Source of the DNA: an uncultured delta proteobacterium
Lineage (GTDB): Bacteria; Desulfobacterota; Desulfomonilia; Desulfomonilales; Desulfomonilaceae
NCBI GenBank assembly: GCA_963789265.1
Contig: CAWBKB010000006.1
Coordinates: 384,001-448,000 of the forward strand
Direction of reading: 5' to 3'
Length of the DNA: 64,000 bases
A program made the position numbers and the translations under genes. The notes beneath the pieces are model-generated. The model was not told where the DNA came from and searched no databases. It saw only the letters and a program-made list of their open reading frames with translations. How positions within the stretch are numbered: the first letter of the stretch is position 1; the number at the start of each line of letters is the position of its first letter. Positions 13,324 to 60,043 of the stretch are shown here, piece by piece.

Positions 13324-13533
13324 CAAACTGTCTCAAAATTCTTGAACTGGACGCAATCGTAACATGAAATTCCCTCACCCTGACCCTCTCCCAAAGGGCG
13401 AGGGGACGCTAATAGAGACCTTGGATCAGCTCCCTCTCCCTCTGGGAGAGGGCTGGGGTGAGGGCACCGAAAATGCTGACCAGGCTTAATCGTGGCACGA
13501 TTCTGGGCATCAAATTAGTTTTGAGACAGTTTG
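13324..13533. mobile_element. MITE type A (IS1182-like ends), cargo CCCTCACCC/GGGAGAGGG REP pair
   Basis: TIR CAAACTGTCTCAAAA...TTTTGAGACAGTTTG, 4-bp duplication GTAC both sides. Confidence 0.9.
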
Positions 13534-13819
13534 GTACCGCCGGCCTCACATCCGGGGAGTGTTCTCCACATGCCCGGCCTTCAACACATGCTCTCCCAAC
13601 TTGCAACCGGCTCACTTATTAACGATTCTTCATAAGAACCAAAGGGTTACCCTAAGATCCGCTGATGTATAATTTGGTACGGAAGTTGCTTCCAAGGATG
13701 GCAGATGGAAACCATCAGGTTGAGACGCCAGGCTACTTCTCCCCCCCAGAGTACTGGCGTTTCGTTTGTGTGCGACAGATTTCAATCTCGGAGAAGACAA
13801 CCTAGATTGCTTCGCCGCT

Positions 13820-14945
13820 TCACCGCACCGACTCGCCCTTAGACACCTCGTAAATGGGGAAGTCCGTGTAGCCAACCTCGTCAAAAGAATACCAGAACCT
13901 TCGTATCTGCCGGCGGATTCAGGGGCCAGCCATTCGCGAAACGTTCCACAAGGTCAGGATTGCTTATGTACGGGCGTCCAAAGGAGATCAAATCAGCGCG
14001 ATGATTCCGAATAGCAGCATCAGCGGTTTCTTGGGTGTATCCGCAATTCCCAACAAGCGGCCCATTGAACATTTCGCGGAATTCCGCGAGCGTCATTGGC
14101 GTTCCAAGTTCGTGAAAACCGAAGCCCAAACCGTCCAACACGTGTAGATAGGCGAGTTCATATCGGTCAAGCTGTTTGGCAACATACAGAAAAGTCTCAC
14201 GATAGTCGGGCGAGCCCATATCGTTAAAATTGCCGTTAGGTGCAATGTGCACGCCTACTCTGCCGGACGGCCAAACAGTAAGAATTCCTCTGACAATCTC
14301 GTCCAGGAATCGGAAGCGATTTTCCAGGCTGCCTCCGTAGCGGTCCGTTCGATGATTGGTCTTTGATTGTAGAAATTGATCGATAAGGTACCCATTTGCC
14401 GCGTGTATCTCCACACCGTCGAACCCCGCTGCTTTGGCTCGCTCAGCCGCGCGGCGATAATCCTCCACGGCGGCCGATACTTCATCCGTTTCCAGCGCTC
14501 TAGGCGTTTCATACGGCTGTTTGCCGATAGGCGTATAAATGTAATCTCCATTGATTTTGATGGCCGAGGGCGCTACCGGTAATCCCTGAAGCTCATGGAA
14601 ACTACTGTGAGAGGCTCGTCCACAATGCCACAGTTGCAGGAAGATCGGCGTGCCTTTAGTATGCACCGCGTCAACCACCTTCTTCCAGGCTTCGGCCTGT
14701 TCGTCCGCGTAGATTCCCGGACTGTTCCGCCACCCTATACCTTGCTCGGAAATTACCGTCGCTTCCGTGATGATGAGTGCAGCGGAGGCTCTCTGAGCAT
14801 AGTACTCGGCCATCAATGAATTGGGCAGCCTTTCTTCGCCGGCTCGAGACCGGGTCAGCGGAGACATGACGATTCTGTTCTTCAGCGAGAGATCGCGCAA
14901 GGAATACCCGGCGAGCAAGGCGCCGGATTTCGTAAACTCAGGCAT
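13820..14945 (-). CDS. Alkene reductase / Old Yellow Enzyme (NemA-like), frameshift near 13896
   Basis: HAANGYLIDQFL, RTDRYGGSLENR, GRPYISNPDL; removing one base restores WYSFDEVGYTDFP C-terminus. Confidence 0.9.
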
Positions 14946-15126
14946 GTTTCTTTCTCCTCATTCGTGTTGAACCCTATAAACAGAATTGGTTCCTCGGCCC
15001 ATCGGCCTAGTAACACCAAGATGACACAGGTGATTATGCCGTAATTTCCGCTGGGACGGCTTCTATCCTGATCTTAGGCCGCGCAGTGCATTGACATAAG
15101 CGGCAAGGTTTATTACGGTCGCGTCC

Positions 15127-16580
15127 ATGATCGAGCATGAAGAACATCGCAGTCCCGGCATCTGTATCCTGGTCCTTCAAATAATGGTATTGGCGGCGGT
15201 CCTTATTTTGGGGCACGCCTGCCTTGAGACTCCTGTCACTTTTGCAAAGGACTCGTCCTCCGTCTCTGTTGAAACAGATGCTGCGCGTGTGAGTGAGGAT
15301 TCGCGAGATCAGGCTTCTGAGAAGCACGATGATGCCGCCGTTCGGCAGCAGAGAAGGCCGGAAGAAAATCAAGCTCAGCTTCAAAAAGCAGAGGAACCCA
15401 ACCAGATTAAACAGCACTTGAGTGAAGAAGAAACGTCTAATGCAAGAAGTGATTCAGCCCCTGGATCGAGAATCAGGCGCCAGGTGGCTGGCGGGATTTA
15501 TTTCTTCCAAGCCCTGGAATTGCCCGTTGCGGCAGAAAAAGGAGTGGATAGAATCTGTCCTGGATGCGGTTGAACGCAATCACATTCCTGTCTGCAAAGA
15601 GATTCTGGGACTCGTTGCCACCCTGATTTCAATTGAATCAGGGTTTCAGGCCGATCCGCTGGTGGTGGGCCATTCGGGACGGAGAAGCATGGAGTCTCTT
15701 CTAAAGCGGGCCGAGCTAAAACTCAATGAGGAATATGGCCCTATGATGTCGATGCCTCCGATCCCGAAGTATTATGCCGCGTACAAAAAGAAGTATTGGC
15801 CTAAGTTGCTTGCATGTCATACTGAAAGTGATGTCGAGCTAATAGCAAAGCGTCTTGGCGAAGAATTGAAAAAGGATGCCAAAAACTTTCCCGCTGTCGT
15901 GGGGAACGTTGTGAATCAGAGGCTCAACAAGCTCGAAAACATCGTCAGAAGTAAAGGCTCCATGCAACTAAAGCTGTTGCGCGCCAGACCGGCCATGAGA
16001 GAGCGCGGCGAAGAGTTCACCGATGAAGAGCTTACCCAGTACATGTATACCCGTAATGGCGGCGTAGACGTAGGGGTTGCAGCGCTCAAACCCATGTTTG
16101 TTCAGTACCGCGGCGCGATATGCCAAGAAGAATAATCTGTCCTGGCTCTTCTTTGTGGGGATGGACTATCACTATGGTCCTTTTGCCAGCAGAAACATGG
16201 CGGAACAGATCCGGATAAGGGACCTTTCCGGCGAGAAGATAGCCATAGACGGCAGTTTTCTTAATCACGATGAAAACGGGAAACCTGACCACGAGGATTC
16301 GGACACTCTACTCGCCGCGTGCAAAGCCTTCCCGATCATCCCCAAGGAGGCTTTTTTCAAAGCTTTCTGCTTCGAACGGAGCCCTGATTACATATATACC
16401 GATGTTCATCGCTCCATTGCGGAGGCTCATAGCGAAAAATTCGGAGAAACGCCCTTTGCTGTAATAGGCGAGATAAGGGTGGGGGAAAGTGCGGAAATCA
16501 AATTCGGCATCACCTGGACCACCAGACTTTATCTGAACAAACTTGACCGTTACCTGAATGCTATACCCTGGGACAATTAA
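15127..16580 (+). CDS. Secreted DUF1615-like protein split into three frames
   Basis: Signal peptide; ESGFQADP, GSMQ, YT..GG motifs; three overlapping ORFs joined at about 15440 and 16109. Confidence 0.6.
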
Positions 16581-16643
16581 TAACGGTGCCGCCTGATTGC
16601 AGACGTGCACAAATGACCGCAGGTGGGTATCCCCCAATTACAG

Positions 16644-16897
16644 TAGGGTGGGCATCCTGCCCGCCAATTAATGTCGTGGGCATCCCGCCGCCCGACTGAT
16701 TTTGATGGAGTGGTCACTCATACCGGTTCGCTCACAATGAGTGAGACCCGGCAAATAGCGAACGGCACTGATCTGGCATCATGACGGAACTCAGGTCAAT
16801 GGCGCCCAACATCCATTCATAAGATCCCGGGTACCACCCCGCCATGCCCTTCATCTGGAATCGACGGGCAATCCCGCGCTTCGCGGGACCACCCTAC
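16644..16897. repeat. GTAG-type REP cluster
   Basis: GTAGGGTGGGCATCCTGCCCGCC ... CCACCCTAC, second GTGGGCATCCCGCC. Confidence 0.6.
16872..16888. repeat. 17-nt micro-palindrome TCCCGCG-CTT-CGCGGGA
   Basis: Directly read; sits inside the CCACCCTAC REP. Confidence 0.75.
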
Positions 16898-16916
16898 TGA
16901 TCTTATGTGCAAGCGA

Positions 16917-17729
16917 TCAATCGGCGAAGAACGCCGCGGTGGGACTCACGTCTATTCTTACCTCACGTACTCCGGGTACCTGCTCTGCCATCACCCTGAG
17001 TTCGTCCGCCAACTGTCCGGCCACTGTTGCGCCGGCTTGAGTATCTACATAGACCACTTGGTCCTTGGCTCTCACCCTGACACTAGGACACTCATCAATC
17101 AATCGGGCCTTGACCCTCGCGGCCGTGACCAAATCCTCCAGCACATTCTGAGACTCGGGTGTTGTTCGGAAATGCTCCAATCCGACCGCGTGGCTGATTA
17201 TATCGACTGCATCTTCGACTGTTATCTTGCGAATATGAATCACCATGTCGTAAAGATTGGGGTCCCAAGTGTCCGCACCGAAAAGCTTTAAACTCCACTG
17301 CCGTCTCTCATGGTCGTCCTTTTTCAGGACGTAAAGGGCTTCATCCTTGGAGATCTTTTCGCGTTCCATTTCCAGCCGGACTCGATCCTCGAGATCGGCC
17401 AATATGCGAACTTTGAGCACGTGGTTGACCTTCTTCAGGAAGAAGTGGCCTCCGAGGCCGTGATACACCACATTGTCCTTCCGAACATGCTCCAGGAAGG
17501 CTGCTTCAAAGAAGGCCAAGTACTTTTCTTTGCCGTAAGTGAAACGTTCCAAAACGGACGGTGCGTCGTGGAGAGCCCGCACCAGTTTTATTTCGGGGAT
17601 ATTGAAATGATCGGAAGCTTCGACGAGGACCTCGCGAGAGATGCAGTCGTACCCGAGTCTTTGTGCAACTCTCTCGGCGACATCTTTTCCTTTGCTGTAA
17701 GATCCCCTGGAAATAGTAATTATGGGCAT
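16917..17729 (-). CDS. Cytidylate kinase-like family protein with C-terminal BON-like domain
   Basis: IITISRGSYSKG, DPNLYDMVI; C-term VPGVREV. Confidence 0.85.
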   Translation of the reverse strand: MPIITISRGSYSKGKDVAERVAQRLGYDCISREVLVEASDHFNIPEIKLVRALHDAPSVLERFTYGKEKYLAFFEAAFLEHVRKDNVVYHGLGGHFFLKKVNHVLKVRILADLEDRVRLEMEREKISKDEALYVLKKDDHERRQWSLKLFGADTWDPNLYDMVIHIRKITVEDAVDIISHAVGLEHFRTTPESQNVLEDLVTAARVKARLIDECPSVRVRAKDQVVYVDTQAGATVAGQLADELRVMAEQVPGVREVRIDVSPTAAFFAD

Positions 17730-17807
17730 TGTCCCACTCCTTTCGACCGAACACTAAGTGCATCGTATAGCAAATACGGTGAGGCCAGGAACCTGGCACG
17801 GAAGAAA

Positions 17808-17892
17808 AGATTGCTTCGCTGCGCTCGCAACGACAGATAGCGTGAATGTCATTGCGAGGAGTGAAATCCCGCGTCCCGCGGGAAAGCAATCC
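17808..17892. repeat. GATTGCTTCG/GTCATTGCGAG REP pair containing micro-palindrome at 17867-17883
   Basis: GATTGCTTCGCTGCGCTCGCAACGAC...GTCATTGCGAGGAGTGAAA[TCCCGCGTCCCGCGGGA]AAGCAATC. Confidence 0.8.
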
Positions 17893-18046
17893 CACCTTGA
17901 AACTGCGCGTTCGAGTTCATGAATCGAAATACTAGTACATTTCTCCGTAAGCGAGTTCGGCATGCGCCGAACACTTTTTAGGATAATAATTTTGATCCAT
18001 CCTTACAAACAATTAATTTTTTCGCCGGTCCCGCAACTCACCGGTG

Positions 18047-19165: not shown

Positions 19166-19299
19166 TAATCTTGTCTCCTTTCATCCGGCGTCAGAGAAGC
19201 TCCAGGGCCACAGGCGGATGTGATGTAAAGCCGAAGAAGGCCCGGTACCCTCTATTGCCTCGGCAACTCCTGTTATGAGGGGTGAAGAGCAGTTTCGGC

Positions 19300-19503: not shown

Positions 19504-19511
19504 GACTGCTC

Positions 19512-20375: not shown

Positions 20376-20473
20376 ATTGATGGCCGCACTTCCTTTTACC
20401 CCTGTCATAAAAGGCCATCCGGCCCATTCTTCCTAAGCGTGTAAAATTCCTGCAATCGGTGCATCTGCGTCCA

Positions 20474-22129
20474 TCAATGAACCACTAGCAGAGTAAAGGG
20501 ATATACATAAGCCTGAAGAAATACCAGGCAACCCACAAGCGTAGCCAGGGCAAGGCTGTGGAAGAAAACGTACCGCAGAATGTCCCCCTCGTGGCCGTAC
20601 CACTGGGTTGCAGTACTGGCCACCACGATGCTCTGAGCGTCAATCATCTTGCCCATGACACCGCCCGCACTGTTGGCAGAACACATCAGCGTCGGGCTTA
20701 TACCTATCTGCTGGGCGGAAATCCGCTGCAAACTACCAAAAAGCACGTTGGAAGATGTGTCCGAACCTGTGAGTGCGACTCCAAGCCATCCGAGCAAAGT
20801 CCCGAAGAAAGGATAGAGGTGACCGGTCATGGCAAAAGCTATGCCCATAGTGGCATCCAGCCCGGAATATCGAGTCACGAATCCGAGAGAAAGCATGGCT
20901 GATATTGTCAAGATGGAATACTTAATCATCTTGATCGTTTCCCAGTAGATTCTCACCATGTCGCGGACGGAATAGCCCATAACAAAACCCGATATTATCG
21001 CTGCCAAGAGGATGCCTGTGCCTGTGGCCGACAACCAGTTGAGAACGTAGACTGCCTTCTCGGCCACAGGCTTTGTAACCACGGGAGGCATGCGCATCAC
21101 CATGAGGTGCAGGTCGGGGACCAGGAACTTGGGCATGGAAATCGCGTTGAGAAAATGCTTGAACGGCCCCAGACCCCACAGGAAGACGAGAACACTGAGG
21201 ATAATCCACGGCGTCCAGGCCCGAATCACTTCTCCTCTGGTGTAATCGTGACTTGCTCGCGCTTCAGCGGTCGCATCATGCCCGTTCAGCCCCCAAATCT
21301 GTTTCGGATGCCACTTCATCAAGAATATCGTCACCGCAGCCAGCGATACCAATGAAGATATGATGTCCACCAGCGAAGGGCCATGGAAATTAGAAACCAG
21401 AAATTGAGGAACTGCGAAAAAAACTCCGGCCACCAATGTAGCCGGCCATACGCCGATTATCCCGCGGAATCCCGCGTAAGCCCACACAAGCCAGAACGGG
21501 ACGAGAAGGGAGAAGAAGGGGAGGATGCGCCCTACCATCGCGCTCAAATGCATTTCGTTCAATCCGCTGACCCCTGCCAAAGTAGTGACCGGGATGCCCA
21601 AGGCTCCAAAAGCTACGGGGGCTGTGTTTGCAATCAAGGAGAGCCCGGAAGCTTCAAGCGGCCCGAAACCTAAACCGATCAAAATTGCGGCAGTAACAGC
21701 CACCGGAGTGCCAAATCCGGCGGCCCCTTCGAAGAAGGCTCCAAAGGCAAAAGCGATGAGCACTAACTGCAACCTGCTGTCCTGCGTAACAGCGGTAAGG
21801 CTGGTCTGTAGGATCTCGAACTGGCCTTTCTCCTTCGTGAGCCGATAGAGGAAAATGACGTGCAGGATGATCCAGCATATAGGCATGAGGCCGAAGCACG
21901 CCCCATAGATTGCGGTGGCTGTTGCGAGTTTTCCGGGCATGTGAAACATAGCCGTTGCCACAGCCAAAGCCGTGGCAAGACCCAGGAGAGCGGCATAGTG
22001 GGCCTTGATTCTGAGAATCGCCAGTGTCCCCAACAGGACCACTACCGGCAAAGCGGCACACAGCGTCGAGAGCGCAATATTATTCAGTGGATTGTAAACT
22101 TGTTGCCAAGGCACCTCCAAACCTCCCAT
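20474..22129 (-). CDS. lctP: L-lactate/glycolate permease
   Basis: FFEGAAGFGTPVA, ANTAPVAFGALG, GSDTSSNVLFG, GGVMGKMI. Confidence 0.95.
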   Translation of the reverse strand: MGGLEVPWQQVYNPLNNIALSTLCAALPVVVLLGTLAILRIKAHYAALLGLATALAVATAMFHMPGKLATATAIYGACFGLMPICWIILHVIFLYRLTKEKGQFEILQTSLTAVTQDSRLQLVLIAFAFGAFFEGAAGFGTPVAVTAAILIGLGFGPLEASGLSLIANTAPVAFGALGIPVTTLAGVSGLNEMHLSAMVGRILPFFSLLVPFWLVWAYAGFRGIIGVWPATLVAGVFFAVPQFLVSNFHGPSLVDIISSLVSLAAVTIFLMKWHPKQIWGLNGHDATAEARASHDYTRGEVIRAWTPWIILSVLVFLWGLGPFKHFLNAISMPKFLVPDLHLMVMRMPPVVTKPVAEKAVYVLNWLSATGTGILLAAIISGFVMGYSVRDMVRIYWETIKMIKYSILTISAMLSLGFVTRYSGLDATMGIAFAMTGHLYPFFGTLLGWLGVALTGSDTSSNVLFGSLQRISAQQIGISPTLMCSANSAGGVMGKMIDAQSIVVASTATQWYGHEGDILRYVFFHSLALATLVGCLVFLQAYVYPFTLLVVH

Positions 22130-22232
22130 CTTCAGTCAAAAATCCCCCCCTTTCCCCATGAGCGTTAAAATAGCCAGCCTCTCAGAATTTGAGAGCCCCA
22201 GCGGGGCTCAATGATAGTAGCCCGGCAATTCA

Positions 22233-22440
22233 GAAACTGTCTCAAAACTATGTTGATGCCGAGCATCGTGCCACGATGGCTGCCCGGCACTAAAGTACCG
22301 GTCTACTCTCAATCGCCCCGATGGGGCTCAAATACAAACGTCCCGGAGGGACTAGTGATAGTAGCCCGGTAATTCATTGCCGGGAATAGGGAGCATTCGT
22401 GTTACGATTTCGTTCGGTTCCAGGGTTTTGAGACACTTTC
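22233..22440. mobile_element. MITE type A (reverse orientation), cargo CCCGGCAATTCATTGCCGGG-family REPs
   Basis: TIR GAAACTGTCTCAAAA...TTTTGAGACACTTTC; duplication TTCA in loop of CCCGGCAA-TTCA-TTGCCGGG. Confidence 0.9.
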
Positions 22441-22559
22441 TTCATTGCCGGGGGACCGGTGAGCGATGATCCAGTTCTTCGTTCCCAGGGCGCCGGAGGT
22501 AAAAATGCTTCGGGCGCCCTGGGGACGAACAGGCTCTCTTGGCCGCTTGTTCCCGGCGA

Positions 22560-22576
22560 TCCCGCGTTCCGCGGGA
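22560..22576. repeat. 17-nt micro-palindrome TCCCGCG-TTC-CGCGGGA
   Basis: Replaces the right arm of a CCCGGCGA...CTATC REP. Confidence 0.8.
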
Positions 22577-22654
22577 CTATCGGGATGTCCCTCCGGGACA
22601 GCAACGCCTCAGCAATCAATCAACCTTATTTTAACGGCTATGCCCCTTTCCCCG

Positions 22655-23974
22655 TTAATGTTGAATCCCGCGTTCCAGTGAAAGATTAATAATCTCGCAT
22701 GTATGAGACACACTCCAGCTACGGCCCCACTTTTTCCGGGCGTACTGGAGTTGCATTAAGCAACCGGGGTTGGAAGTAATGACCCTTTCGGCCCCCGTTT
22801 TGTCGATCGCTGCGACCTTGGCCTCAAGGATCTTCATGGCTCGTTCACGGTGGGTAATATTGTAGATTCCGGCCGAACCGCAGCATTGTCCTTCATCAAG
22901 GATGTCTTTCAGCGTGAGGCCGGGTATCAGGCCCAGCACGTCGCGCTGCGGAGTGATGAGCCTTTGCCCGTGGCGTAGGTGACAGGGATCATGAAAACAA
23001 ACTGTCTCGGGGATTGCACCAAGTTTGATGTAGTCCTTCAGCGCAGGAGCCAGGAATTCGGATATGTCCCGAACCTTTGCGGAAAATGCCTCAGCCTTCT
23101 CGGCCATGCGGGCACGCTGGCCAAGGGTTTCGCGGTAGGCTTTCAATTCGGATCCGCACGCGGCGCAGTCCGTGACAATCGCTTCCACTCTTTTTTCTTC
23201 GAACAGGTTTACATTGTGTTCGGCCATTTCGCGGTAAATTTTTCGCTCGCCTTCAGCGATGTTGGGTGTACCGCAACACTGCTGGTTTTTCGGAACAACG
23301 ACCGTGTACCCCGCTCGAGTGAGAATGTTTATTGTGGCTCGACTCACTTCTCCGAAGATGAGGTTCATTGCGCAGCCCAAGAAAAAGCCCACTCGGCCCC
23401 TTTCCTTTCCAACCGCGGGGATTTCTTCGGGCAGAGTATGGCTTAACGGCCGCACAGGAAGAGGCGGCAGCAAGGATTCCATAAATTCCAAATCAGGTGA
23501 GATGAGGCGCAAAATGTGGGATTTCTCAATTAGCCGTTGAAGCCCCGAATACTGGTACACGCGTAGAGGCGTTAAAAGATGCGAGAGCTTTTCCTGATCA
23601 CGAATGGCATGATGGAGGACAAATCGCTTCAATAGAGGCTGCGCGGTATTCTCCTCAATCCGATGCCGCGCCTCAAGGACTAATTCGCCCACTTTGACTC
23701 CCGCGGGGCAAACGGTTTGGCAATTGCGGCAGTCCAGGCAATGGTACATGTGGCCCACAAATTCTTCCGAAGCCGACAATCGTCCGTCAATGACTGCCTT
23801 GATCATAGCCACGCGGCCTCGGGGAGACTGGGTCTCTATACCGTCGGTGCGATAGGTCGGGCAGGTAGGGAGGCAGGTTCCGCACCTCATACACTGGAGG
23901 ACATCGCCGTAATCGTGAATATCCAAAGTAGCCAAAGCCTTGGCAATCTTCTCTGAATCGACGTGCTTGCCCAT
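22655..23974 (-). CDS. glcF: Fe-S oxidoreductase, GlcF-like (2 CCG domains)
   Basis: CMRCGTCLPTCP, CLDCRNCQTVCP, QCCG, HDPCHL, CCGSAG. Confidence 0.9.
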   Translation of the reverse strand: MGKHVDSEKIAKALATLDIHDYGDVLQCMRCGTCLPTCPTYRTDGIETQSPRGRVAMIKAVIDGRLSASEEFVGHMYHCLDCRNCQTVCPAGVKVGELVLEARHRIEENTAQPLLKRFVLHHAIRDQEKLSHLLTPLRVYQYSGLQRLIEKSHILRLISPDLEFMESLLPPLPVRPLSHTLPEEIPAVGKERGRVGFFLGCAMNLIFGEVSRATINILTRAGYTVVVPKNQQCCGTPNIAEGERKIYREMAEHNVNLFEEKRVEAIVTDCAACGSELKAYRETLGQRARMAEKAEAFSAKVRDISEFLAPALKDYIKLGAIPETVCFHDPCHLRHGQRLITPQRDVLGLIPGLTLKDILDEGQCCGSAGIYNITHRERAMKILEAKVAAIDKTGAERVITSNPGCLMQLQYARKKWGRSWSVSHTCEIINLSLERGIQH

Positions 23975-25830: not shown

Positions 25831-25970
25831 TTTACCGCGGAGAGCGCAGAGACCGCGGAGAAATAAGTGTTCTTTATTTCTGTGGCAGGTGAGATATATG
25901 TCTGTACGACTCACCTTGTCATGTCCAAAGCATTTATCTCTCTGCGATCTCTGTGAACTCTGCGGTGAAT
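25831..25970. repeat. Inverted REP pair (ACCGCAGAG..CGCAGAG family)
   Basis: TTTACCGCGGAGAGCGCAGAGACCGCGGAG ... CTCTGCGATCTCTGTGAACTCTGCGGTGAA. Confidence 0.8.
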
Positions 25971-25973
25971 TTC

Positions 25974-27128
25974 TTACTCCGCCCCGAATATGCTCACATT
26001 GCCATAGATGCCTACGCCGCCTATGTTATGGACCAGCCCGATTTTCGCGTCCGGCACCTGCATATCCCCTGCCTCGCCTCGCAACTGCAAGATAATGGTA
26101 CGGATTTGCGAGCCTCCGGTGGCTCCGATGGGATGCCCCTTGGAGAGCAATCCTCCATCTACGTTGACCGGAATATTGCCTTCCTTATAGGTCTCTTTGT
26201 TTCGAATAAGCTCTTTCCCTCGGCCCGGCTCTGCGAATCCCAGGTCTTCGTACGCCATCATCTCTGCGATTGTGAAGCAATCGTGGACTTCGGCTACGTC
26301 CACGTCTTTTGCTGTTATGCCCGCCATTTCGTAAGCTCGCTTTGCTGCCAGTTGCGCACACTTCAGTCCGCTAAAGGTATCTCTACCGGCCATGTTTATC
26401 GGAGCCGTAGCCATGCCGAGCCCTTTTATCCAAATCGGTTTTTTGCAAAGGGCCTTCGCCCTTTCTTCGGAGGCAAGGATGACGCACGATGAGCCGTCCG
26501 CGTTCGCGCAACAATCGTACATCTTGAGAGGCGTGGCGATATACTTCGGCTCAAGCACTTTGTCCAGCGTCAAAGATTTGCGGAAGACCGCTTTCTCGTT
26601 GATCTGCCCGTAAGTTGAGGACTTGACGCGAATGAGGGCCAGGTCTTCCTCGGAAGTGCCGTACTTCTCGAAATGCCCGCGGGCGTACATTGCGTAGTAA
26701 GCCGGCATCATGGTTCCAAAAGGAGCTTCCCACTGAATATCCGCGCCGCGTCCCATTCTCTCTTGAGATTCCGCAGAAGAGATTTCGGACATCTTCTGGA
26801 AGCCCAGCACGAGCACAACGTCGTGAAGGCCGGACGCGATAAGTGCGTACGCGGTTCTGAGGCCACTGGAACTGGATGAGCACACGCTTTCTACATAGAA
26901 GGTGGGCTGGGGATTGAGCCCCAGGTACTCTGCCATAAGTCCTGCCGGCGTCCGCTGTTTGTCGTATTCAGGAGCCGAACAGATTACCGATGCGTCGATC
27001 TGTTCCGATTTGAGGCCCGCGTCTTGCATGGCGTCTCGGTAGGCTTCAAAAGCCAGTTCTCGGATCGAACCCGGGTAGGCCCGCACAAAAGCACTTTGGC
27101 CGACGCCGATTACCGCAACCTTTGCCAT
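25974..27128 (-). CDS. Thiolase (SCP-x/archaeal-type acetyl-CoA acetyltransferase)
   Basis: ESVCSS catalytic Cys, EVHDCF, NVDGGLLSKGHPIGATG. Confidence 0.92.
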   Translation of the reverse strand: MAKVAVIGVGQSAFVRAYPGSIRELAFEAYRDAMQDAGLKSEQIDASVICSAPEYDKQRTPAGLMAEYLGLNPQPTFYVESVCSSSSSGLRTAYALIASGLHDVVLVLGFQKMSEISSAESQERMGRGADIQWEAPFGTMMPAYYAMYARGHFEKYGTSEEDLALIRVKSSTYGQINEKAVFRKSLTLDKVLEPKYIATPLKMYDCCANADGSSCVILASEERAKALCKKPIWIKGLGMATAPINMAGRDTFSGLKCAQLAAKRAYEMAGITAKDVDVAEVHDCFTIAEMMAYEDLGFAEPGRGKELIRNKETYKEGNIPVNVDGGLLSKGHPIGATGGSQIRTIILQLRGEAGDMQVPDAKIGLVHNIGGVGIYGNVSIFGAE

Positions 27129-27939: not shown

Positions 27940-29259
27940 ATGCACGACAAAACTGCACCGCAATCGGCCGCGTCCTACCCCGGAGTTCTCATATTGTGCG
28001 ATTTTGACGGCACTGTGTCAACGAAGGACACTGTGAATCGTCTGGTGAGAGAACACGCGACGTCGCCGGAATGGCGCTATTACGTGAAGCGGTATATGCT
28101 CGGAGAAATAGGCTCCCGGGAAGTATACGAAGGCATCGCGCCCCTAATGAGGATGACTCGTGAGGACCTGGAAATGTTCGTCCGCAACCACGCGGCACTG
28201 GATCCGAGTTTTCCCCAATTCCTGGCATGGGCCAAGAGACGAGGAATCGACGTCAAAATTGTCTCCGACGGATTCGATGCCACAATAGAAAGATTGTTTC
28301 ACAACCACGGAATCTCGGGGCTGGAAATCTTCGCCAACACCCTAACCTTCGGAGACGACGGCAGAGTCTCAATGGCTAGCCCGCATTCCAATCCTGCATG
28401 CGGAACCTGTGGCACGTGCAAGTTGAGCATTTTGCGAAAGTTTCGGCCTTATTATGACAAGATCGTTTTGATCGGGGACGGGGAGTCCGACCGCCACGTC
28501 GCAGGTGAAGCCGATGTGGTATTGGCGCTAAACGAGCTTTTTGTATATTGCGCCCGGCATCGCATTCCATCGGTGCGTGTAAGCGGCTTTCAGGAAATTC
28601 CTCAATTACTCACAAGGGGCATCGCGGCCGTGGCATTCGACATGGACGGTACTTTGATCGATTCGCTTGACACCATTACAGACGCGTTTAATCACATGTT
28701 TAAGACGCTCGGTTACCCGTCGATGACCACAGCAGAAGTGGTCCGAACCACTTCAATCTCACTAAAGGATTTTACCGAGACTTACCTCAAACCAGAGGAA
28801 ACGGAAACAGGCATTCGAATCTTTCGAGAATACTACGACGGCATTTTCCTTGAGAAAACGACGATGATTCCGGGGGTAATGGAAACGCTCGCAGCACTTG
28901 ACGGGACAATACTCAAGGGGATCGTCACCAACAAGCGTGGCAATTACGCCCTAAAGCTCGCGGAGCATTTTGGATTCGCTCAAAACATGGCTCGCATCAT
29001 AGGCGCTGAAGACGGCTTCAAGGCTAAGCCGGCTGGAGAAATGTGCGAGGAATTTATCCGCTCGGTGGGGGCCTCCAAAGATAATACGGTCTATGTTGGG
29101 GATGCTCCAATTGATATTCAGGCAGCGAAAAACGCGGGCATAGATGCCTTTGCCGTGGCAAATCCCCTTTTCTCTGCGGAAGATCTGGCACTTTGTGCTC
29201 CCCGTAGAGTATTGAATGATATAACCGAGTTGCCTGCAGCGCTCCGGCCTCTGATATAA
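27940..29259 (+). CDS. Tandem HAD phosphatase (MtnX-like IB domain fused to Gph-like IA domain)
   Basis: CDFDGTV...GDGESD and FDMDGTLIDS...VGDAPID. Confidence 0.9.
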   Translation: MHDKTAPQSAASYPGVLILCDFDGTVSTKDTVNRLVREHATSPEWRYYVKRYMLGEIGSREVYEGIAPLMRMTREDLEMFVRNHAALDPSFPQFLAWAKRRGIDVKIVSDGFDATIERLFHNHGISGLEIFANTLTFGDDGRVSMASPHSNPACGTCGTCKLSILRKFRPYYDKIVLIGDGESDRHVAGEADVVLALNELFVYCARHRIPSVRVSGFQEIPQLLTRGIAAVAFDMDGTLIDSLDTITDAFNHMFKTLGYPSMTTAEVVRTTSISLKDFTETYLKPEETETGIRIFREYYDGIFLEKTTMIPGVMETLAALDGTILKGIVTNKRGNYALKLAEHFGFAQNMARIIGAEDGFKAKPAGEMCEEFIRSVGASKDNTVYVGDAPIDIQAAKNAGIDAFAVANPLFSAEDLALCAPRRVLNDITELPAALRPLI

Positions 29260-29260
29260 G

Positions 29261-29487
29261 GTAACCGTTCAGCGGACTTCAAGATTCACCGCAGAGTCCG
29301 CAGAGAACGCAGAGATAAAGGATAGTTTATTCAATTCCACGTCAATCACCGCGTGTACAGTCAGGTCGGCATTGTCCTTCCCGCGTCGTGGGATCACATA
29401 CCGGAACCTGCTGTACACAATTCGCATAAGCGTTCGGAGAAAATAGAATTCTCCGCGGTCTCTGCGCTCTCCGCGGTGAACGATTAC
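29261..29487. mobile_element. MITE type D (GTAA ends, 8-bp duplication; IS66-like) carrying CCGCAGAG REP pair
   Basis: Ends GTAACCGTTCA / TGAACGATTAC; GATATAAG at 29253-29260 and 29488-29495. Confidence 0.85.
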
Positions 29488-29642
29488 GATATAAGCTATG
29501 CGGCTGAATTGTCCGCGCTCGGAATTGTAGTCGCGTAAGAATTGGTTGAGAATGAGGGTAGTGGCTGGAACGGGCGTATTGCTATCCGAATGACTATTAT
29601 GAATATGGGAAATAACGGTATGTACTGGGACGGGGTCGGAAT

Positions 29643-32466: not shown

Positions 32467-32784
32467 CGAATACTCCTTGTTACTGAAACCTCTTCAAATG
32501 ATGCCGACTACAAGCCGTTCTGCAGGCCCGTCGGGGATCACAATATGCCCCATCGAGATGTCGGACGCAATATCCTATCAGGATTCACATCAAAAGGAGG
32601 TTTTAGAGATGGTCTCGGATTGCCTTCGCGGAGGGATTTGGTTGCTGAAGAACCGATAGTAAAAGACAAGCGCGTACCGCGGAAGCGGTCTGATGTCGAT
32701 GCGCTTTCAAGCAAGTGTCGCCGTGCCCGTGTACGCGGCCATCCGGTAGGACCGGTTCCGCGAGACGCGAATCGCCGGCAGGGA

Positions 32785-32940
32785 GAAACTGTCTCAAAAC
32801 TCTTGAACTGGACGCAATCGTAACACGAAATTCCCTCACCCCAGCCCTCTGGGAGAGGGCCGGGGTGAGGGCACCGAAAATGCCTAGCAGGCCCAATCGT
32901 GGCACGATGGCGGTCATCAAAATAATTTTGAGACAGTTTC
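32785..32940. mobile_element. MITE type A, cargo shortened CCCTCACCC/GGGAGAGGG REP
   Basis: TIR GAAACTGTCTCAAAA...TTTTGAGACAGTTTC; duplication GGGA in loop of GCCGGCA-GGGA-CGCCGGC. Confidence 0.92.
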
Positions 32941-33174
32941 GGGACGCCGGCGCTACCGTGCCATTGGCAGCGTATTTGCGAAACGCTGTGCTGAGCGCCT
33001 TGGATGTGAGAGCACACTACACCCTTAAGCCAGAGCAAACAAATACCCAGCCCCATCTTGGCGCTTTCGAACCACACTGATCGGTGCCTCATGTGCCCGT
33101 GTTTCCGTACACGGTTACAGTACGACACCACGTCACGCGCCGCACCATTTCAGAGAAAGCAGCAGACCCGCAAC

Positions 33175-44593: not shown

Positions 44594-44810
44594 GGAAGGG
44601 TGGGCCATGCCCACCGCCGTTCCGAATAGGTGGCGACCATGAACTTGTATCGGTAGGACAGGCATCCTGGTGTCGTCATGCCCGCGTACGCGGGCATCCA
44701 GTAGGACCGGCCTCCGCGCCGGTTGTTCGCGAGTCGCCGGCGCGGAGGCCGGCTCTACCTTCGGATCGGCGCCCTGGGTGACGAATGACAGGCAGGATGC
44801 CTGTCCCACC
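44594..44810. repeat. Mixed REP cluster inside nif operon
   Basis: GTAGGACAGGCATCC..GACAGGCAGGATGCCTGTCCCAC; GTCATGCCCGCGTACGCGGGCATCCAG; GCCGGCGCGGAGGCCGGCTCTAC. Confidence 0.8.
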
Positions 44811-49145: not shown

Positions 49146-50048
<903 letters not shown>

Positions 50049-50175: not shown

Positions 50176-50315
50176 CCGCTATTTGGAGGGTGACCATCCG
50201 AGTCTTGATGCCAGTGCGCGATCAAACGGTGAACAATCAAAGAAATACAGCACGGATCTGACAAAGCCCAGATCCGTGGCACCCAGGACCTGATTTTGAC
50301 TGGATGTTGGGGCCA

Positions 50316-50332
50316 TCCCACGTCCCGCGGGA
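50316..50332. repeat. Micro-palindrome variant TCCCACG-TCC-CGCGGGA
   Basis: One mismatch to copy at 17867. Confidence 0.6.
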
Positions 50333-50488
50333 AGCACCATCATGGCGCCAGGTCAGTGCCGTTTAGCATCGGCCCATTCCCACTTGTTTGAAAGCGAATC
50401 AATATGATGCCTCTGGCTGTGCACAAACTCTGAGTCGTTTGGGTCCGGTCATCATCTTTATCTATGAACCGAAGTTTTCTCGGTAGGT

Positions 50489-51857: not shown

Positions 51858-51884
51858 ATTTCCTCGCTTTTCCGCAAACGGCCT

Positions 51885-54800: not shown

Positions 54801-55429
54801 CTCAGAATACCATCGGCTTGACCATGCACTTGAATCTCACCGAGGTTCTGGAAAGCGAACAGATGGGAAGTCAGCCGGTAGGTTTCTTGCGATACGAGAA
54901 TTTCACCCTGCTTCGACGAATCCTTGAGCATTTTTGCGGTCTTCACAGCCTCACCCGCGAACACAAGCTCTTGATGCTCGCGGTTGCCGATCCGTACGAC
55001 CGTCACGTTCCCTGTGTCGATTCCGAAGCTCAGGTCCAACCTGAGTTTGCACTCCGCACTGACCTCCTCCAGCAACCGTACAATCTCCAATGCCGCGCGG
55101 CAGGCGCGCTCCGCATCATCGTCATGCGTGTCCGGTATCCCGAATACCGCCATAATGCTCTCACTGGTGAACTCGGCCATAAGCCCGTCGTAGTGCTCGA
55201 TAACGCGCCGAAAACGTTCGAAATATCCTTTCAGCAGAGCACCCTCGGTTTGGACGTCCACGGAGTCAACATAGACCCGGAAGTCGGGAATTGCGGCTAC
55301 TATGACGGTGGCGAGCTTGCACTCTGACGGACAAACATTCTCAGGAGCATCAATGTCATCCGACGCTCGTCCTATCTTTTCACTGATGGCCATGGAGCAT
55401 TTCCACATCCGGAACCGTGCGGGATCCAC
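51885..55429 (-). CDS. Class III cyclase-like / AAA ATPase / TPR protein split by two frameshifts (about 53887, 52327)
   Basis: AVFG.P..HDDDAERA, GEAGIGKSRL, VFEDIQW, EGNPFFIEE, TPR-like C-term. Confidence 0.88.
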
Positions 55430-55748
55430 GCGAAATCAGTTCTCGCGTAGTCGATCTCGGCCCCCAAACATGCTACAATCTTATTAAGAATTTTTTCTCG
55501 AACCGGCCCTTTCGATCTTGCGATGCTTCTGAGCAAAACGCCGGAGAGTCGTGCATCAGCATCTCACAGTCGAGCAAAGCCAAATGTTGACAAAATCTAC
55601 TCACATCGGTGCAGTTTATGCCACAAACCACGGCCTTGCAACGGATATTTCGGCTTGACCGGGACTCACGTTTACAGGTACGATAACATTAGGCAGCATA
55701 GGAGTGAGTTATGAGAGTTCGCGCCTGCCACTTGATCGGGGGAATTGA

Positions 55749-58685
55749 ATGGGGAAAACATTACCCGGTGGAGTTGCTCCAATCAGCTCCATATCGACCT
55801 ATGAGATCAGTAAGCTCGAATCATCCGTAGCTTGGCAATTCTATTCGTCTTGTCGCGGCCGATACAAACTTGCAATCCTCGGTGCTTTGTTGCTTGCGGC
55901 CGCACTTTGGGAGGTAGTGCCCGGTGGCCACATTCTGGCTTGGCTAGGCGCTGTTCTTGTGTCTCAGATTTCAAGTCAAGCTATGTGCTCGGCCTTTGGT
56001 AGGGCATCGGCGGCCGGCAGCTCCGAGACTTATTGGAAGTGGCTATTTGCGGCTGGCGTGGCGATCAGCGCCCTTGTGGCCGGCATTGCAGGAATCTACC
56101 TGTTCCCCGTCGGATCAATGCCCCACCAATTTGTTCTCGCGCTCTATCTGGCTTGTATAGGCTGTGTGGCAGTGATCACGTATTCCGCGTTCCTGCCATC
56201 CAGCATAATTGCCATTCTCCTGGTAATGCTTCCCTTATGCGGTAATTTCGCGAGTCAAAGATCACAATTCGGGTACACCATGGGCGCAGTGCTTTTGTTG
56301 TTCACTGTAGCATTGATTAGCGCCGCCGCCCACATGCATAGGGTCCTGATGGAAACCCTGAAACTGCGAATTGAAAAGGATGGGCTGATAGAATCTCTGT
56401 CGCGCGAAAAGGAGAAGATTGAAGGCCTCAACGCCGAACTCGAAGCAGAAGTGCTGGAGCGAAGACTTATTGCCGAATCTCTCAGCAGAAGCGAAGATAG
56501 ATACCGTGCCGTCGTACAGGGCCAAACTGAATTCGTTTGCAGGTGGCTTGCGGACTATGGCCTCTCATTCGCCAACGAGGCGTACCGACGCTATTTGCAC
56601 GCGGACCCCGATGACTTGTTAGGCCGTAGCTTCCTGGAGGTTGTGCATCCAGCCGACTTGGAACAGGTTCTTGGTTTCTTTGAATCGATTAGTCAAGGCA
56701 CCGGTCCGGAGATATGTGAATACCGAGTGAACATGCCTGGAAAGGAGATCCGGTGGCTTCAATGGACCTGCCGGCCGATACTTGACAAACTGGGTCAAGT
56801 GAAAGAGTACCAGGGCGTTGGGAGGGACATCACGGCTCGAAAGAAAGCGGAAGAAGCGCTGGCGGCGTCGGAGGAGAAGTATCGGTCAATTGTGGAGAAC
56901 GCCGGTGAAGGAATTGTGGTCGTCCAAGGGACCAAAGCCGGATTTGTGAATCCTAAAATACTAGCATATACCGAGTTGTCGGAAGATGTATTGAAGGCAG
57001 GTGAATTTATTGATTTCTTTCATCCTGACGACAGACAATTGTTGAAGGATGCCTGCCTAAAAGCGACCCAGGGAGAAGAGCCGCCATCAGCAGAACTCAG
57101 ATTCCTGAACAAGACCGGAGACAGATCATGGTTTCAGCTCAAGGCGGTAGGTATTTCATGGGAAGGCAAACAGGGAATACTCGGATTCATCACAGACGTC
57201 ACCTGGCGCAAGGAAGCGGAACGAGCACTGCAAAAATCTCATGAAGAGCTTGAAGTAAGAGTCCGGGAACGAACAGCCGAACTGAACGAAATGAACAAGA
57301 AGTTGCAGCTTGAGATTGCAGACAGACTCCATGCCGAGGAGTCATTACGTAACAGTGAACAACGCTTTCGGACAATATTCGAGAAAGCTCGGGACTGCAT
57401 ATTCGTTAAAGACATACAGCTTAGATACACTCACCTCAATCCGGCGATGCAAGCTATAATTGAAGCGGATGAATCGGATACTACAGGATTGACCGATAGA
57501 GATCTGTACGGGGACGACCAAGCAGTTCGCCTTATGGATGAAGACATGCGGGTCCTGGTCGGCCAAGTTGTAGAAGCGGAACATACTCTCATGCTTAAGG
57601 GGCGCGAACTTACTTTCAACTGCGTCAAGGTCCCTATGATAAATTCTTCAGGCGAGATCGTGGGGCTGTGCGGGATCGCGCGTGATGTCACCGAACGCTC
57701 GCGTACAAAGTCGCAACGACAGAGGAGTGGCTTGGACTTTGGGTCAAAGTTCATGACCAAAACTCTGAACCAAGTTCGGTTAGCCGCCAAGAGTGACAGT
57801 CTTGTCCTGTTACTCGGAGAAAGCGGCAGCGGCAAGGATTTTCTTGCAGGACATATCCATCATTTGTCTCCTCGATCCGGGGGGCCGTTTTTTGCGATAA
57901 ATATGGCTGCTGTAGCTCAGGAGCTTGCTGAATCGGAACTGTTCGGTCATGAGGCAGGCTCGTTTACAGGGGCTCGAACTCGGAAACGTGGGATGCTGGA
58001 GCTTGCCGAAGGCGGCACGCTCCTGCTGAACGAAATTGGGGAGTTATCCCTTACGCTCCAGGCAAAACTCCTGACTTTTCTAGACACGCGATCTTTCACG
58101 CGTGTCGGCGGTGTGGCAAACATAGAGGTGGACGCCCGACTCATTGCAGCCACAAACCGTGATCTCGGGAAGGAAGTGGAAGCCGGCCGCTTTCGTCACG
58201 ATCTTTATCACCGGCTCAATGTATTCTCCATACGAGTGCCGTCGCTGCGCGACCGGTTGGATGACCTTCCGTTGCTCGTTGAGACGATATTGAGCCAGTT
58301 GTGCGCCAAGTTAGGCCGGGGCGAGGTTCCTCCCATGGATGCCCGGTGCCTGCCAATGATGGTGCACTATCACTGGCCTGGTAACGTAAGAGAATTGAAA
58401 AACGTCTTGGAACGCGCCTTGATCCTCTCGGACGGCGGTAAAATAAAGCCGGAGGCCATCCGGCTCTGGGAACACCAAAACGTGAGCAAAGAACAGGACA
58501 ACTGGTTTTACGTCGTTCATTTCCCGGATCAGTATAAGAATTTGAACGATGTATGGAACAGCGTAAAGTCGGAGTTGCTGAAGGAGGCCCTCCGCCGCAC
58601 GTCCGGTGTCAAGAAGGATGCTGCGAATCTCTTGGGGATTTCTGTCGATTCGTTTAAGTACCAATCCAAAACCGTCGGCGTGTGA
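55749..58685 (+). CDS. Membrane-anchored multi-PAS sigma54-dependent activator
   Basis: N-terminal TM helices, three PAS domains, GESGSGKD, GSFTGA, WPGNVREL, HTH. Confidence 0.92.
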   Translation: MGKTLPGGVAPISSISTYEISKLESSVAWQFYSSCRGRYKLAILGALLLAAALWEVVPGGHILAWLGAVLVSQISSQAMCSAFGRASAAGSSETYWKWLFAAGVAISALVAGIAGIYLFPVGSMPHQFVLALYLACIGCVAVITYSAFLPSSIIAILLVMLPLCGNFASQRSQFGYTMGAVLLLFTVALISAAAHMHRVLMETLKLRIEKDGLIESLSREKEKIEGLNAELEAEVLERRLIAESLSRSEDRYRAVVQGQTEFVCRWLADYGLSFANEAYRRYLHADPDDLLGRSFLEVVHPADLEQVLGFFESISQGTGPEICEYRVNMPGKEIRWLQWTCRPILDKLGQVKEYQGVGRDITARKKAEEALAASEEKYRSIVENAGEGIVVVQGTKAGFVNPKILAYTELSEDVLKAGEFIDFFHPDDRQLLKDACLKATQGEEPPSAELRFLNKTGDRSWFQLKAVGISWEGKQGILGFITDVTWRKEAERALQKSHEELEVRVRERTAELNEMNKKLQLEIADRLHAEESLRNSEQRFRTIFEKARDCIFVKDIQLRYTHLNPAMQAIIEADESDTTGLTDRDLYGDDQAVRLMDEDMRVLVGQVVEAEHTLMLKGRELTFNCVKVPMINSSGEIVGLCGIARDVTERSRTKSQRQRSGLDFGSKFMTKTLNQVRLAAKSDSLVLLLGESGSGKDFLAGHIHHLSPRSGGPFFAINMAAVAQELAESELFGHEAGSFTGARTRKRGMLELAEGGTLLLNEIGELSLTLQAKLLTFLDTRSFTRVGGVANIEVDARLIAATNRDLGKEVEAGRFRHDLYHRLNVFSIRVPSLRDRLDDLPLLVETILSQLCAKLGRGEVPPMDARCLPMMVHYHWPGNVRELKNVLERALILSDGGKIKPEAIRLWEHQNVSKEQDNWFYVVHFPDQYKNLNDVWNSVKSELLKEALRRTSGVKKDAANLLGISVDSFKYQSKTVGV

Positions 58686-58911
58686 TTGCCGCACCGGTCG
58701 ACTTGACCGATCCATCGGTGAATCCCACCTGCGAAATAAGATAGCGGATTTACATCATTTGCCAGGAGTGGTTATACTTCCGTAGGTGAATTTCACACGT
58801 TGAGCCGGGTCTACCTTCTAGTCGGTAAAAAGTCCTTTCAACAGCCTGATACTCTCTCATCTCCCTGATTTAACTTGAATTGCACGTGAACACCACATCA
58901 GCCGGTCCCAT

Positions 58912-58928
58912 TTGGTACGTAAAGTGCA
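58912..58928 (+). promoter_or_regulatory. Possible sigma54 promoter
   Basis: TTGGTAC-GTAAA-GTGCA (GG-N10-GC); GGTGAAT motifs at about 58718 and 58785 upstream. Confidence 0.5.
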
Positions 58929-59069
58929 GAGTAGGCACCACCAACCTACCTTGCATGGGGGAGCTCACGGCCAATAATCGACCTGGGCTCCCAATTTCAG
59001 AATCGCCATGAGAGAAAAGAATCAAACCGGGAGGGGAGAGTGTCATGTGCAACAGATTATACGTGTTTA

Positions 59070-59232
59070 TAGCCAATGCCAAAAGTAATGACCTGTTCAC
59101 CACCCGTCGCCCCGGCGAAGGCCGGGGTCCAGTCCCGCGAGGAACGCGGGATTGAAAAGACTGGATTCCGGCCTTCGCCGGAATGACGGTGTCAGGCTAT
59201 CTCCAATCGGACAGAACTTTTGGCAATGGGTG
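59070..59232. mobile_element. MITE type B (TA target, IS630-like) carrying GTC..CCGGCGAAGGCCGG REP pair and micro-palindrome (59133-59151)
   Basis: TA|TAGCCAATGCCAAAAGT...ACTTTTGGCAATGGGTG|TA. Confidence 0.8.
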
Positions 59233-59723
59233 TAGTGGAACTATCCTTCTTTTGCTACTGTCGTCTGCGGGATTTGCACAGGAGTTGGGCTGGCGATCAT
59301 GCCATGCTCAAGCCGCGGCGCGGCAAACGTGGTAAAATCACAGGGCAGGCTGGCTGTGGCAAAGGTCCTGTACGATGCCGCTCAAGCGATTTACGAGCGC
59401 AATGGAGGATTGGACCGGGAACTCACTTCCATGTCTCTTGCAAAAGCAAGAATTTGGCCGGTGCTCCCCGAAGATTAGCCATCATCTCATCCGTGAAACC
59501 AAAGTCAGATATTGATAGCCTAAGAGCCCGGGTGACATGATGGTACGGAGAAAGTCCCACTTGGCATGACTGCGCCGACAATTGGGGTTGAGCGGCAGGC
59601 TCCCAGCATCTCCTGTAAATCCCGGACGTGTCCAGATCTGTGCACTTTCACAATCCCCATGCGCCCTCTCTAATGAAGGGGAAGAGGGGATTTTTATTAC
59701 TTGTTTGAAAGCGCATAGGTCTA

Positions 59724-59973
59724 TAGGCTTTGCCAAAAGTTTTGACCGATTTGCCCCACGTCCCGCGGGGTCACCCCGGACTCCGATCCGAGGTCTGTAG
59801 GGGCAGTCCCGCTCCTCGCGGGATTGTGTCTGCCCTCTTCCGGGCACCCACCAGGGGTGCCCCTACAGTGGATTCCCGCGTACGCGAGAATGACGGCTAA
59901 ACGTCCACAGCGAAGTATGTTCAGCATTCTTGGCATCGGGCGGCCAAACGGACTTTACTTTTGGCGGACGCTA
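59724..59973. mobile_element. MITE type B, second copy, with nested REP families and micro-palindromes (59754, 59807)
   Basis: TA|TAGGCTTTGCCAAAAGT...ACTTTTGGCGGACGCTA|TA. Confidence 0.8.
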
Positions 59974-60043
59974 TAAGACGTCGCAACTGGAAGGTTATGC
60001 TCTGCAATTTGCACGAATTGTTTTTGTCAATATCCGATAAGAC

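Follow-up and report, generated by a model that had tools for sequence, protein, structure and literature searches.

Nested REP hairpins and miniature inverted-repeat elements in a Desulfomonilaceae genome

The stretch of DNA considered here (the window, 64,000 nucleotides; C6:384001-448000) belongs to the genome of an uncultured soil delta proteobacterium of the Desulfomonilaceae (GCA_963789265.1), which is assembled to 95.6% completeness as 6.06 Mb in nine contigs (C1-C9) and is designated G000, with G001-G006 denoting genomes of the same genus. Scattered over the window are transposable elements of the miniature inverted-repeat kind (MITEs), in which ends like those of an insertion sequence (IS) enclose hairpins of the kind known as repetitive extragenic palindromes (REPs). 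A first-pass annotation, made from the letters of the window, had sorted these elements into four types, A to D; its positions and target-site duplications (TSDs) hold for all four, with the type C element running from 22157 to 22642. The features on which the argument turns are the following, where those given without a strand have no strand assignment.

7601..8192, + strand: broken IS200-like gene of the Y1 class, resembling a REP-associated tyrosine transposase (RAYT), in frame pieces 7601-7921 and 7845-8192, with Y1_Tnp at E=2e-14 on 7845-8189
8194..9868, + strand: decayed copy of the type A IS, with Pfam domains DUF772 and DDE_Tnp_1_6, in a REP hairpin loop with sides TAAA / TTTA
9869..10040: cluster of free REPs that lies downstream of both the IS and the Y1 gene, the first of them interrupted by that IS
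13324..13533: type A MITE of the largest cluster, TSD GTAC, at a non-REP site, with the cargo CCCTCACCC / CCCTCTCCC..GGGAGAGGG as an inverted doublet
22157..22642: type C MITE of 486 bp, TSD CCCCTTTCCC, with IS1595-type ends, REPs of the GTAG type and, at its centre, a long hairpin
22233..22440: type A MITE of the second cluster, TSD TTCA, with four REP-type hairpins as cargo, nested in the type C MITE
29261..29487: type D MITE with GTAA ends (IS66-type), TSD GATATAAG at 29253-29260 and 29488-29495
32699..32983: island of repeats that includes REPs and the remnant of an E-like end, host of the type A MITE at 32785
32785..32940: type A MITE, short form (cluster of 3), TSD GGGA, in the loop of a GTAG-type REP
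59070..59232: type B MITE with a TA duplication and a CGTC-tagged REP doublet, the tip of which bears a small TCCCGCG hairpin
59724..59973: long form of the type B MITE, TA-flanked, its ends like those at 59070 and its REP array a different one

Seven families of ends and the hairpins between them

Comparison of seven window elements with the genome by blast gave 17 to 134 matches each, near-identical full-length copies included, and each of types A to D is a genuine MITE family, with numerous copies genome-wide. Three additional families of ends, E, F and G, bring the number to seven. All have terminal inverted repeats, and their MITEs are about 75-490 bp long, lack coding capacity and occur as 20-74 paired copies per family. 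Repeated 12-mers delimit ~2,200 islands of 20-45 bp, ~900 of 45-140 bp, 300 of 140-350 bp and 25 of IS size, and the end motifs of types A-D are absent from 276 of the 411 islands that measure 120-700 bp, which cluster into further families.

Each type A copy in the window has 15-base inverted ends and a 4-bp duplication. Genome-wide, a 14-base end motif (at most two mismatches) matches 291 times, against 73 times for a reversed control motif, and 94 convergent pairs are found, of which 74 span 74-349 bp, 18 span 1673-1675 bp and 2 are odd; end pairs of 1044 and 1481 bp were judged to be chance or compound pairs. An exact 4-bp duplication flanks 56 of the 94 pairs, and 48 of the 74 MITEs among them. 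The long class is an IS, 17 of whose 18 copies differ from their consensus at 0-3 positions (the window copy differs at 9 and its frame is split), and the consensus carries a single frame of 487 codons, a predicted transposase with the domains DUF772 (N-terminal; E=1.1e-14) and DDE_Tnp_1_6 (E=1.4e-22). From these Pfam domains, and from a hairpin-targeting habit like that described in the accessible text of PMC4923244, the IS is assigned to the IS1182 family, and to judge from sequence the type A MITEs belong to it. The MITEs form clusters of 44, 16 and 3 copies with 11 singletons, and between clusters ~45 bases are common at each end and the interiors are unrelated; the copy at 13324 has 14 other full-length copies at 90-98% identity.

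Type C is built in the same manner, with 30 pairs genome-wide, a 9-12 bp duplication in 14 of the 30 (one mismatch allowed), and two subfamilies whose ends are alike and whose hairpin interiors are unrelated. The earlier suggestion that elements with the same ends carry different cargo is thus borne out for types A and C, and REPs are carried by three of the four types to which they had been ascribed, namely A, B and C. Type D fits neither statement. It has 24 long matches genome-wide, 5 of them with an exact 8-bp duplication, and its CGCAGAG-type motif is a triple direct repeat within ~45 bases of each end rather than a hairpin, around a non-REP interior.

Candidate autonomous partners are present for some of these families. 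One 3063-bp element with type C ends (a single copy, C1:1641746-1644808) holds an IS1595-family transposase and is likely the partner of type C; the same element has an extra open reading frame (ORF) of 332 codons for which no Pfam family was found and which may be a passenger gene. An IS66-family transposase gene lies between D-like ends at C3:479401-482803, and this element is the likely partner of D and F. Two other candidates for that role, C1:620669 and C6:371893, were set aside as holding ordinary genes and no transposases.

In type B, TA flanks each end in 21 of 26 pairs. The core motif of 10 bases does not by itself rise above chance (502 hits against 596 for the control), and the family therefore rests on the 17 other copies of the 59070 element at 84% identity or more; the long form at 59724 has 2 other full copies. 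An IS630-like element (DDE_3), present in two copies in the genome, was considered as a partner of type B and rejected, its ends being unrelated.

Of the additional families, E comprises 44 pairs, and AT flanks both ends in 22 of 39. Between two outer REPs, its interiors string together 4-8 REP modules in varying combinations, and copies differ by substituted blocks. Family G comprises 20 pairs with IS1595-type ends, 19 of them at 174-176 bp, with an exact 11-bp duplication in 13 of the 20. Family F has 52 pairs with IS66-type ends, and at least 18 of the 52 have their own exact 8-bp duplication. Sixteen F copies of 144-148 bp are REP-free, and 14 others have a GTAG-family REP doublet at one internal site, so that REP-free and REP-bearing copies of one and the same MITE occur side by side in this genome. 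Six bases of the F frame are missing where the doublet sits. Some REP-bearing copies have, in turn, small TCCCGCG hairpins within the loops of their REPs, and single F copies contain nested B, A or C MITEs. The predicted fold of the F consensus is one long hairpin (-43 kcal/mol), and the doublet site coincides with its unpaired internal loop. Further members of these groups in the window are as follows.

17799..17891: F-related repeat with a TCCCGCG hairpin inserted
25831..25990: D-like element with one recognisable end, read from sequence
50211..50401: E-like repeat family member (cluster of 22 islands)

The first-pass annotation had named 9869 and 25831 as places where REPs occur without a clear pair of ends. 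The former is the first base after the IS that splits a REP and the latter has one D-like end. An example of REPs outside MITEs lies at 44653-44752, where three or four different REPs stand together and inverted ends are absent from the surroundings.

Hairpins are nonetheless concentrated between the ends, in line with the first-pass annotation. The genome holds 5,898 windows with a perfect hairpin of 7-base stem, in many repeated families, and these reach 18.6 per kb in the interiors of paired copies from families A, B, C, E and F (34,353 bp), against 2.15 per kb in other non-coding DNA, as set by a crude ORF mask, and 0.58 per kb in coding DNA, an approximately 9-fold excess over other non-coding sequence. 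Nor are end pairs mostly empty in A, B, C or E; about half of the F copies are REP-free. For the commonest stems, mostly about one quarter to three quarters of the perfect hairpins lie within islands of at least 120 bp, the exceptions being stems that belong to the IS or to type A ends (94-100% within such islands) and two families with none.

The commonest hairpin of all, TCCCGCG-loop-CGCGGGA (17-19 bp; 202 perfect copies, 270 by a looser pattern), occurs in the window at 59128-59146 and 22556-22575, and its copies are found inserted at the tip of REP doublets, within loops that belong to other REPs and inside family F's internal loop. A general test of its nesting was weakly positive, with a flanking stem of at least 5 bases in 22 of 270 copies against 4.4% for re-paired flanks; individual examples are clear.

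One explanation for such enrichment is selection on the interiors themselves, in which a palindromic core would aid the pairing of ends, or would act as a terminator or RNA stabiliser that renders insertions harmless, such that MITEs with REP-like cores, wherever these came from, out-multiply others. Only 2 of the 74 type A pairs, of about 75-80 bp, lack cargo, and the predicted folds are strong, both that of F and those of type C elements (-25 to -116 kcal/mol), all of which such selection would lead one to expect. However, the REP-free copies of F are as numerous as the REP-bearing ones (16 versus 14), and type D spreads without any REP cargo, and we consider selection an improbable cause of the pattern.

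REP hairpin loops as landing sites

The reverse relation, which the first-pass annotation missed, is that type A IS, their MITEs and families C and G insert into REP hairpin loops. Within the window, the IS at 8194-9868, the type A MITE at 32785 and that at 22233 all lie in such loops, the last in the TTCA loop of a REP that itself belongs to the type C element at 22157-22642. Genome-wide, a stem of at least 6 bases (one mismatch allowed) surrounds the 4-base duplication in 13 of 18 type A IS and 33 of 74 type A MITEs, compared with 2.8% of 20,000 random sites, and perfect stems are found in 6 of 18 IS and 21 of 74 MITEs, compared with 1.1% of sites in the whole genome and 2.1% in crude non-coding DNA (5,000 sites each). 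By eye, halves of one GTAG-type REP family flank 16 of the 18 IS copies. Relatives of the type A transposase in other metagenome-assembled genomes, at 51-71% identity, lie in palindromes at 5 of 9 loci (9 of 13 examined). For 17 of its 20 pairs, family G occupies the loop of one particular REP; at least 7 type C duplications take in the loop of a REP hairpin together with a few bases of its stem. Since the duplications of C (9-12 bp) and G (11 bp) span the loop with 2-3 stem bases on each side, the stagger of the cut seems to be set by the shape of the hairpin and not by a fixed spacing. REPs are therefore landing pads for these elements, and those carried inside MITEs invite further nesting.

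The locus of the nested pair at 22157-22642 has a counterpart in a related organism, in which a 1,512-letter contig (public run X3) joins position 22127 to 22671 with 51 other letters, its flanks differing at 19 of 328 letters on one side and 15 of 241 on the other. Both the type C element and the type A copy within it are thus absent from that locus in the relative. This comparison used contigs of public runs; the short repeat-derived pieces that cover most of the repeat region of the window were left aside, as were uncovered stretches and the joints 22229-22577 and 22384-22578, whose sides measure 45 and 22 letters.

Shared flanks raise the question of which element moves which. It could be supposed that a RAYT copies the REP together with a MITE lying in its loop, making the MITEs mere passengers, and there are indeed shared REP halves around about 12 copies in a GGCT-TTCC-AGCC loop and about 10 in a GGCA-GGGA-CGCC loop. 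Against this, type A copies that are 93-98% identical lie in different REP families and at non-REP sites, each with its own 4-bp duplication, and the 13324 copy has no surrounding REP at all. Sub-lineages of type A are mixed across REP families and non-REP sites, on which ground the REP was rejected as the vehicle, a role that we hold to be very improbable.

Identical 4-base duplications flank just 8 of the 18 IS copies genome-wide. Several copies have unlike REP halves to left and right, or a pair of duplications of which one is the reverse complement of the other (TAAA / TTTA; in the window at 8190-8193 and 9869-9872), and such mismatched flanks suggest inversions or exchanges between IS copies, or assembly joins at the 1.67-kb repeat.

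Shared modules, changing cargo and routes of entry

One module shared by unrelated frames is the CGTC-tagged doublet of type B. One REP arm of this doublet has 46 genome matches (at most two mismatches), of which 19 are in B, 22 in G and 5 elsewhere, these last being two doublets that stand free, two lone arms and one match that is probably due to chance. The boundaries of the module are identical in the B and G frames, and the two length forms of B differ by the TCCCGCG hairpin at the doublet tip. Full B and A composites are present in G001 and G004 of the same genus, with A in G005 too; in other genomes the matches to B cover its cargo alone. Among five loci read in relatives, the doublet lies within B ends in G001 and G004 and without any A-G end motif in G002 and G006, and the fifth (G011) has two B-end motifs and no match to the doublet. 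The cargo is therefore more widely distributed than the frames.

Changes of cargo within one frame are seen in family F. A tree was built from 131 frame columns, insert columns having been removed, for 37 of the 52 pairs (140-260 bp long and with 60% or more identity to the consensus). In it, copies with and without REPs are intermingled, the trait requires at least 11 changes, and a single REP-bearing clade is rejected by the approximately unbiased (AU) test at p=0.00018 (14 rows against 16, with 7 other rows uncounted). The cargo state of F has therefore changed repeatedly, by insertion, loss or conversion, and REP-bearing composites have moved to many loci. The incongruence between ends and cargo that had been proposed as a sign of cargo swapping is accordingly found in F. 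It is not found in A, where the ends-only tree gives no support for swapping (AU p=0.13).

The reading that we prefer, and to which we assign a probability of about 0.7, is the mutual nesting of two known kinds of mobile DNA in a REP-saturated genome. The end pairs are, on this reading, ordinary MITEs of at least four DDE transposase lineages, with A of the IS1182 type, B and E marked by 2-bp duplications (TA and AT, respectively), C and G of the IS1595 type, and D and F with IS66-type ends. The hairpins within them would be REP or REP-doublet (REPIN-like) modules, drawn both from GTAG-tagged, RAYT-linked families and from CGTC-tagged ones. Once a module had entered a founder copy it would be copied at each transposition of the MITE, presumably by DDE transposases acting as movers of the composite, and each capture would found a subfamily with unchanged ends and new cargo; conversely, REP loops receive insertions of the type A IS with its MITEs and of families C and G. 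That REPs hitch-hike on DDE-type ends, one of two possibilities raised by the first-pass annotation, is upheld by the enrichment between ends, by copies with the same ends and different modules, by the same module in different end families and by the F tree.

How modules enter MITEs is a separate matter. Insertion of a Y1/RAYT type into the unpaired loops of a folded MITE is a slightly better than even prospect, and entry through recombination or gene conversion at REP homology is a plausible route of somewhat lesser standing. The genome has six Y1_Tnp loci. Short high-copy palindromes with a GTAG/CTAC tag flank both RAYT-like genes and the insertion sites of A and G; one RAYT-like gene (C3:99734) has inverted GTAG REPs on both sides, another (C7:408888) has a REP array on one side, and the frameshifted Y1 gene of the window adjoins the REP split by the IS at 8194-9868. 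No CGTC units were found in the flanks of three of the six Y1 loci or of the window copy. Two further frames, C4:127925 and C1:92163 (372 and 377 codons, stop to stop), are nearly identical to each other, with Y1_Tnp near the N-terminus and a long C-terminal extension, and are unlike the RAYT-like genes of about 170 residues.

Recombination might also account for the whole pattern, and not for entry alone. Gene conversion, template switching at hairpins, or unequal exchange among MITE copies and free REP arrays could shuffle cargo with no Y1 transposase, and REPs offer 20-35 bases of homology for such events. Modules in E and F are replaced and not merely inserted, as the six lost frame bases of F and the substituted blocks of E attest, and the conflict in the F tree is the outcome that recombination would produce, as are the matching duplications in only 8 of 18 IS copies if copies exchange with one another. 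Fusions between families exist as well, and recombination would explain them: at C1:897681 and C1:912984, a type A MITE of the second cluster is present by its left half, and a REP common to both elements leads on into type C interior sequence. However, it leaves unexplained how the first module arrived between a pair of ends, why the F site coincides with an unpaired loop, and why the same doublet has the same boundaries in B and G without common flanking homology, and as a full account we regard it as unlikely.

A number of observations weigh against mutual nesting itself. No REP was caught in the act of inserting. Because copies of a MITE are not independent of one another, roughly a dozen founding events stand behind the density ratio. 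In the largest type A cluster, the hairpins may be native to the MITE and not captured REPs, as 94 of the 122 matches to their motif lie within paired type A MITEs, and the 17 loci outside pairs include 13 degraded type A MITEs and about 4 that are free or due to chance, on our reading; the earlier treatment of these hairpins as independent REPs is not sustained. In the ends-only tree of type A (61 of 74 copies, 92 columns), the cargo requires 4 changes and a single origin is retained, and the apparent exchange that produced the second cargo may be one event. The F tree has 131 columns, with 4 of 33 inner branches well supported, and the polymorphism of F would be explained equally well by precise loss, occurring repeatedly, or by gene conversion from one copy to another. 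Type D misfits altogether, its repeat motif being part of the ends and not cargo. Finally, no transposase partner for B, E or G was found within this 95.6%-complete assembly.

Known systems and the consequences of nesting

Mobile insertion cassettes, or transporter IS, consist of IS end pairs that lack a transposase and surround variable passenger genes. The MITEs described here share with them the combination of ends and a variable passenger, and differ in that the passengers are non-coding mobile elements instead of genes. The nearest parallels for the type A IS are IS1272 and TnSha1 of staphylococci, IS1182-family elements that, in the accessible text of PMC4923244 and PMC5678879, target hairpins with little specificity for primary sequence and insert into the stem with partial deletion and no duplication. 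The type A IS belongs to the same transposase family by Pfam and likewise uses inverted-repeat or hairpin targets; in contrast, it inserts into loops, generates a clean 4-bp duplication and has a large MITE progeny of at least 74 copies. REPs are also recorded, in those parts of the sources that are available, as insertion hot spots for ISPpu9, ISPpu10, ISPa11, ISPsy8, ISRm22 and others (Tobes and Pareja 2006, PMC1525189) and as targets of IS1397 and IS621 (Delihas 2011, PMC3184786), and IS621, IS1594 and ISPpu9 are described there as full IS elements of the IS110/IS492 family (PMC1525189; PMC3184786). Families A, C and G resemble these in their use of REPs as targets, and depart from them in that three families of ends (IS1182-type A, and IS1595-type C and G) and their MITEs do so in one genome.

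On the side of the cargo, the accessible literature describes GC-rich palindromes tagged with GTAG/CTAC or CGTC/GACG, often as inverted doublets, and RAYT genes with inverted REPs (PMC3733652; 10.1101/2021.07.10.451892). For the CGTC-tagged class, whose palindromes end in CGTC/GACG, the available text of Di Nocera et al. (2013, PMC3733652) reports no transposase gene flanked by such units; the doublet of B and G has both this tag and a palindromic form. The hairpins found here match REP/REPIN-RAYT systems in their tags, their inverted doublets and the RAYT-like genes flanked by inverted REPs. Those accounts, as far as their accessible text goes, treat REPs and MITEs as separate classes, whereas here a large share of the REPs lies inside MITEs bounded by terminal inverted repeats, and spreads along with these. 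A similar comparison holds for the bacterial interspersed mosaic elements (BIMEs) of E. coli, described in the available part of a review as mosaic REP clusters (Delihas 2011, PMC3184786). The interiors of family E are likewise combinatorial arrays of several REP types; BIMEs have neither inverted ends nor target duplications, and the family E arrays are bounded by both (AT in 22 of 39).

No description of REPs carried inside MITEs was found in the accessible text of the Delihas review, of Di Nocera et al. or of the searchable REPIN literature, subscription journals lying outside this scope, and a 2024 survey of prokaryotic MITEs does not mention REPs in its text. The first-pass annotation had seen in these elements a modular system that matched no described class. 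What is present is instead a nesting of known kinds, namely REPs or REPINs, MITEs and hairpin-seeking IS; each component is known, and the combination is little described, above all the carriage of CGTC REPs in two MITE frames. As a tentative extension, on which we would not insist and which we think rather doubtful, the CGTC-tagged REPs, a widespread class of repeat, may in this genome spread mainly as passengers of DDE-type MITEs, and hairpin loops may be a common currency among IS1182-type IS, IS1595-type MITEs, REP doublets and TCCCGCG hairpins, each landing in the unpaired loops of the others to form a self-reinforcing network of nested repeats.

The usual view holds REPs and MITEs apart and assigns them separate engines, Y1/RAYT enzymes for the former and DDE transposases for the latter. 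If REP doublets are routinely carried in MITEs, the number and distribution of REPs would not be attributable to RAYTs alone, and classes of repeat for which no transposase is known, such as the CGTC REPs, would gain a route of spread that can be tested. Annotators who call REPs and MITEs independently will mis-count both in genomes of this kind. Furthermore, REP-rich genomes would be self-amplifying targets for hairpin-seeking IS, with a bearing on how such genomes are rearranged.

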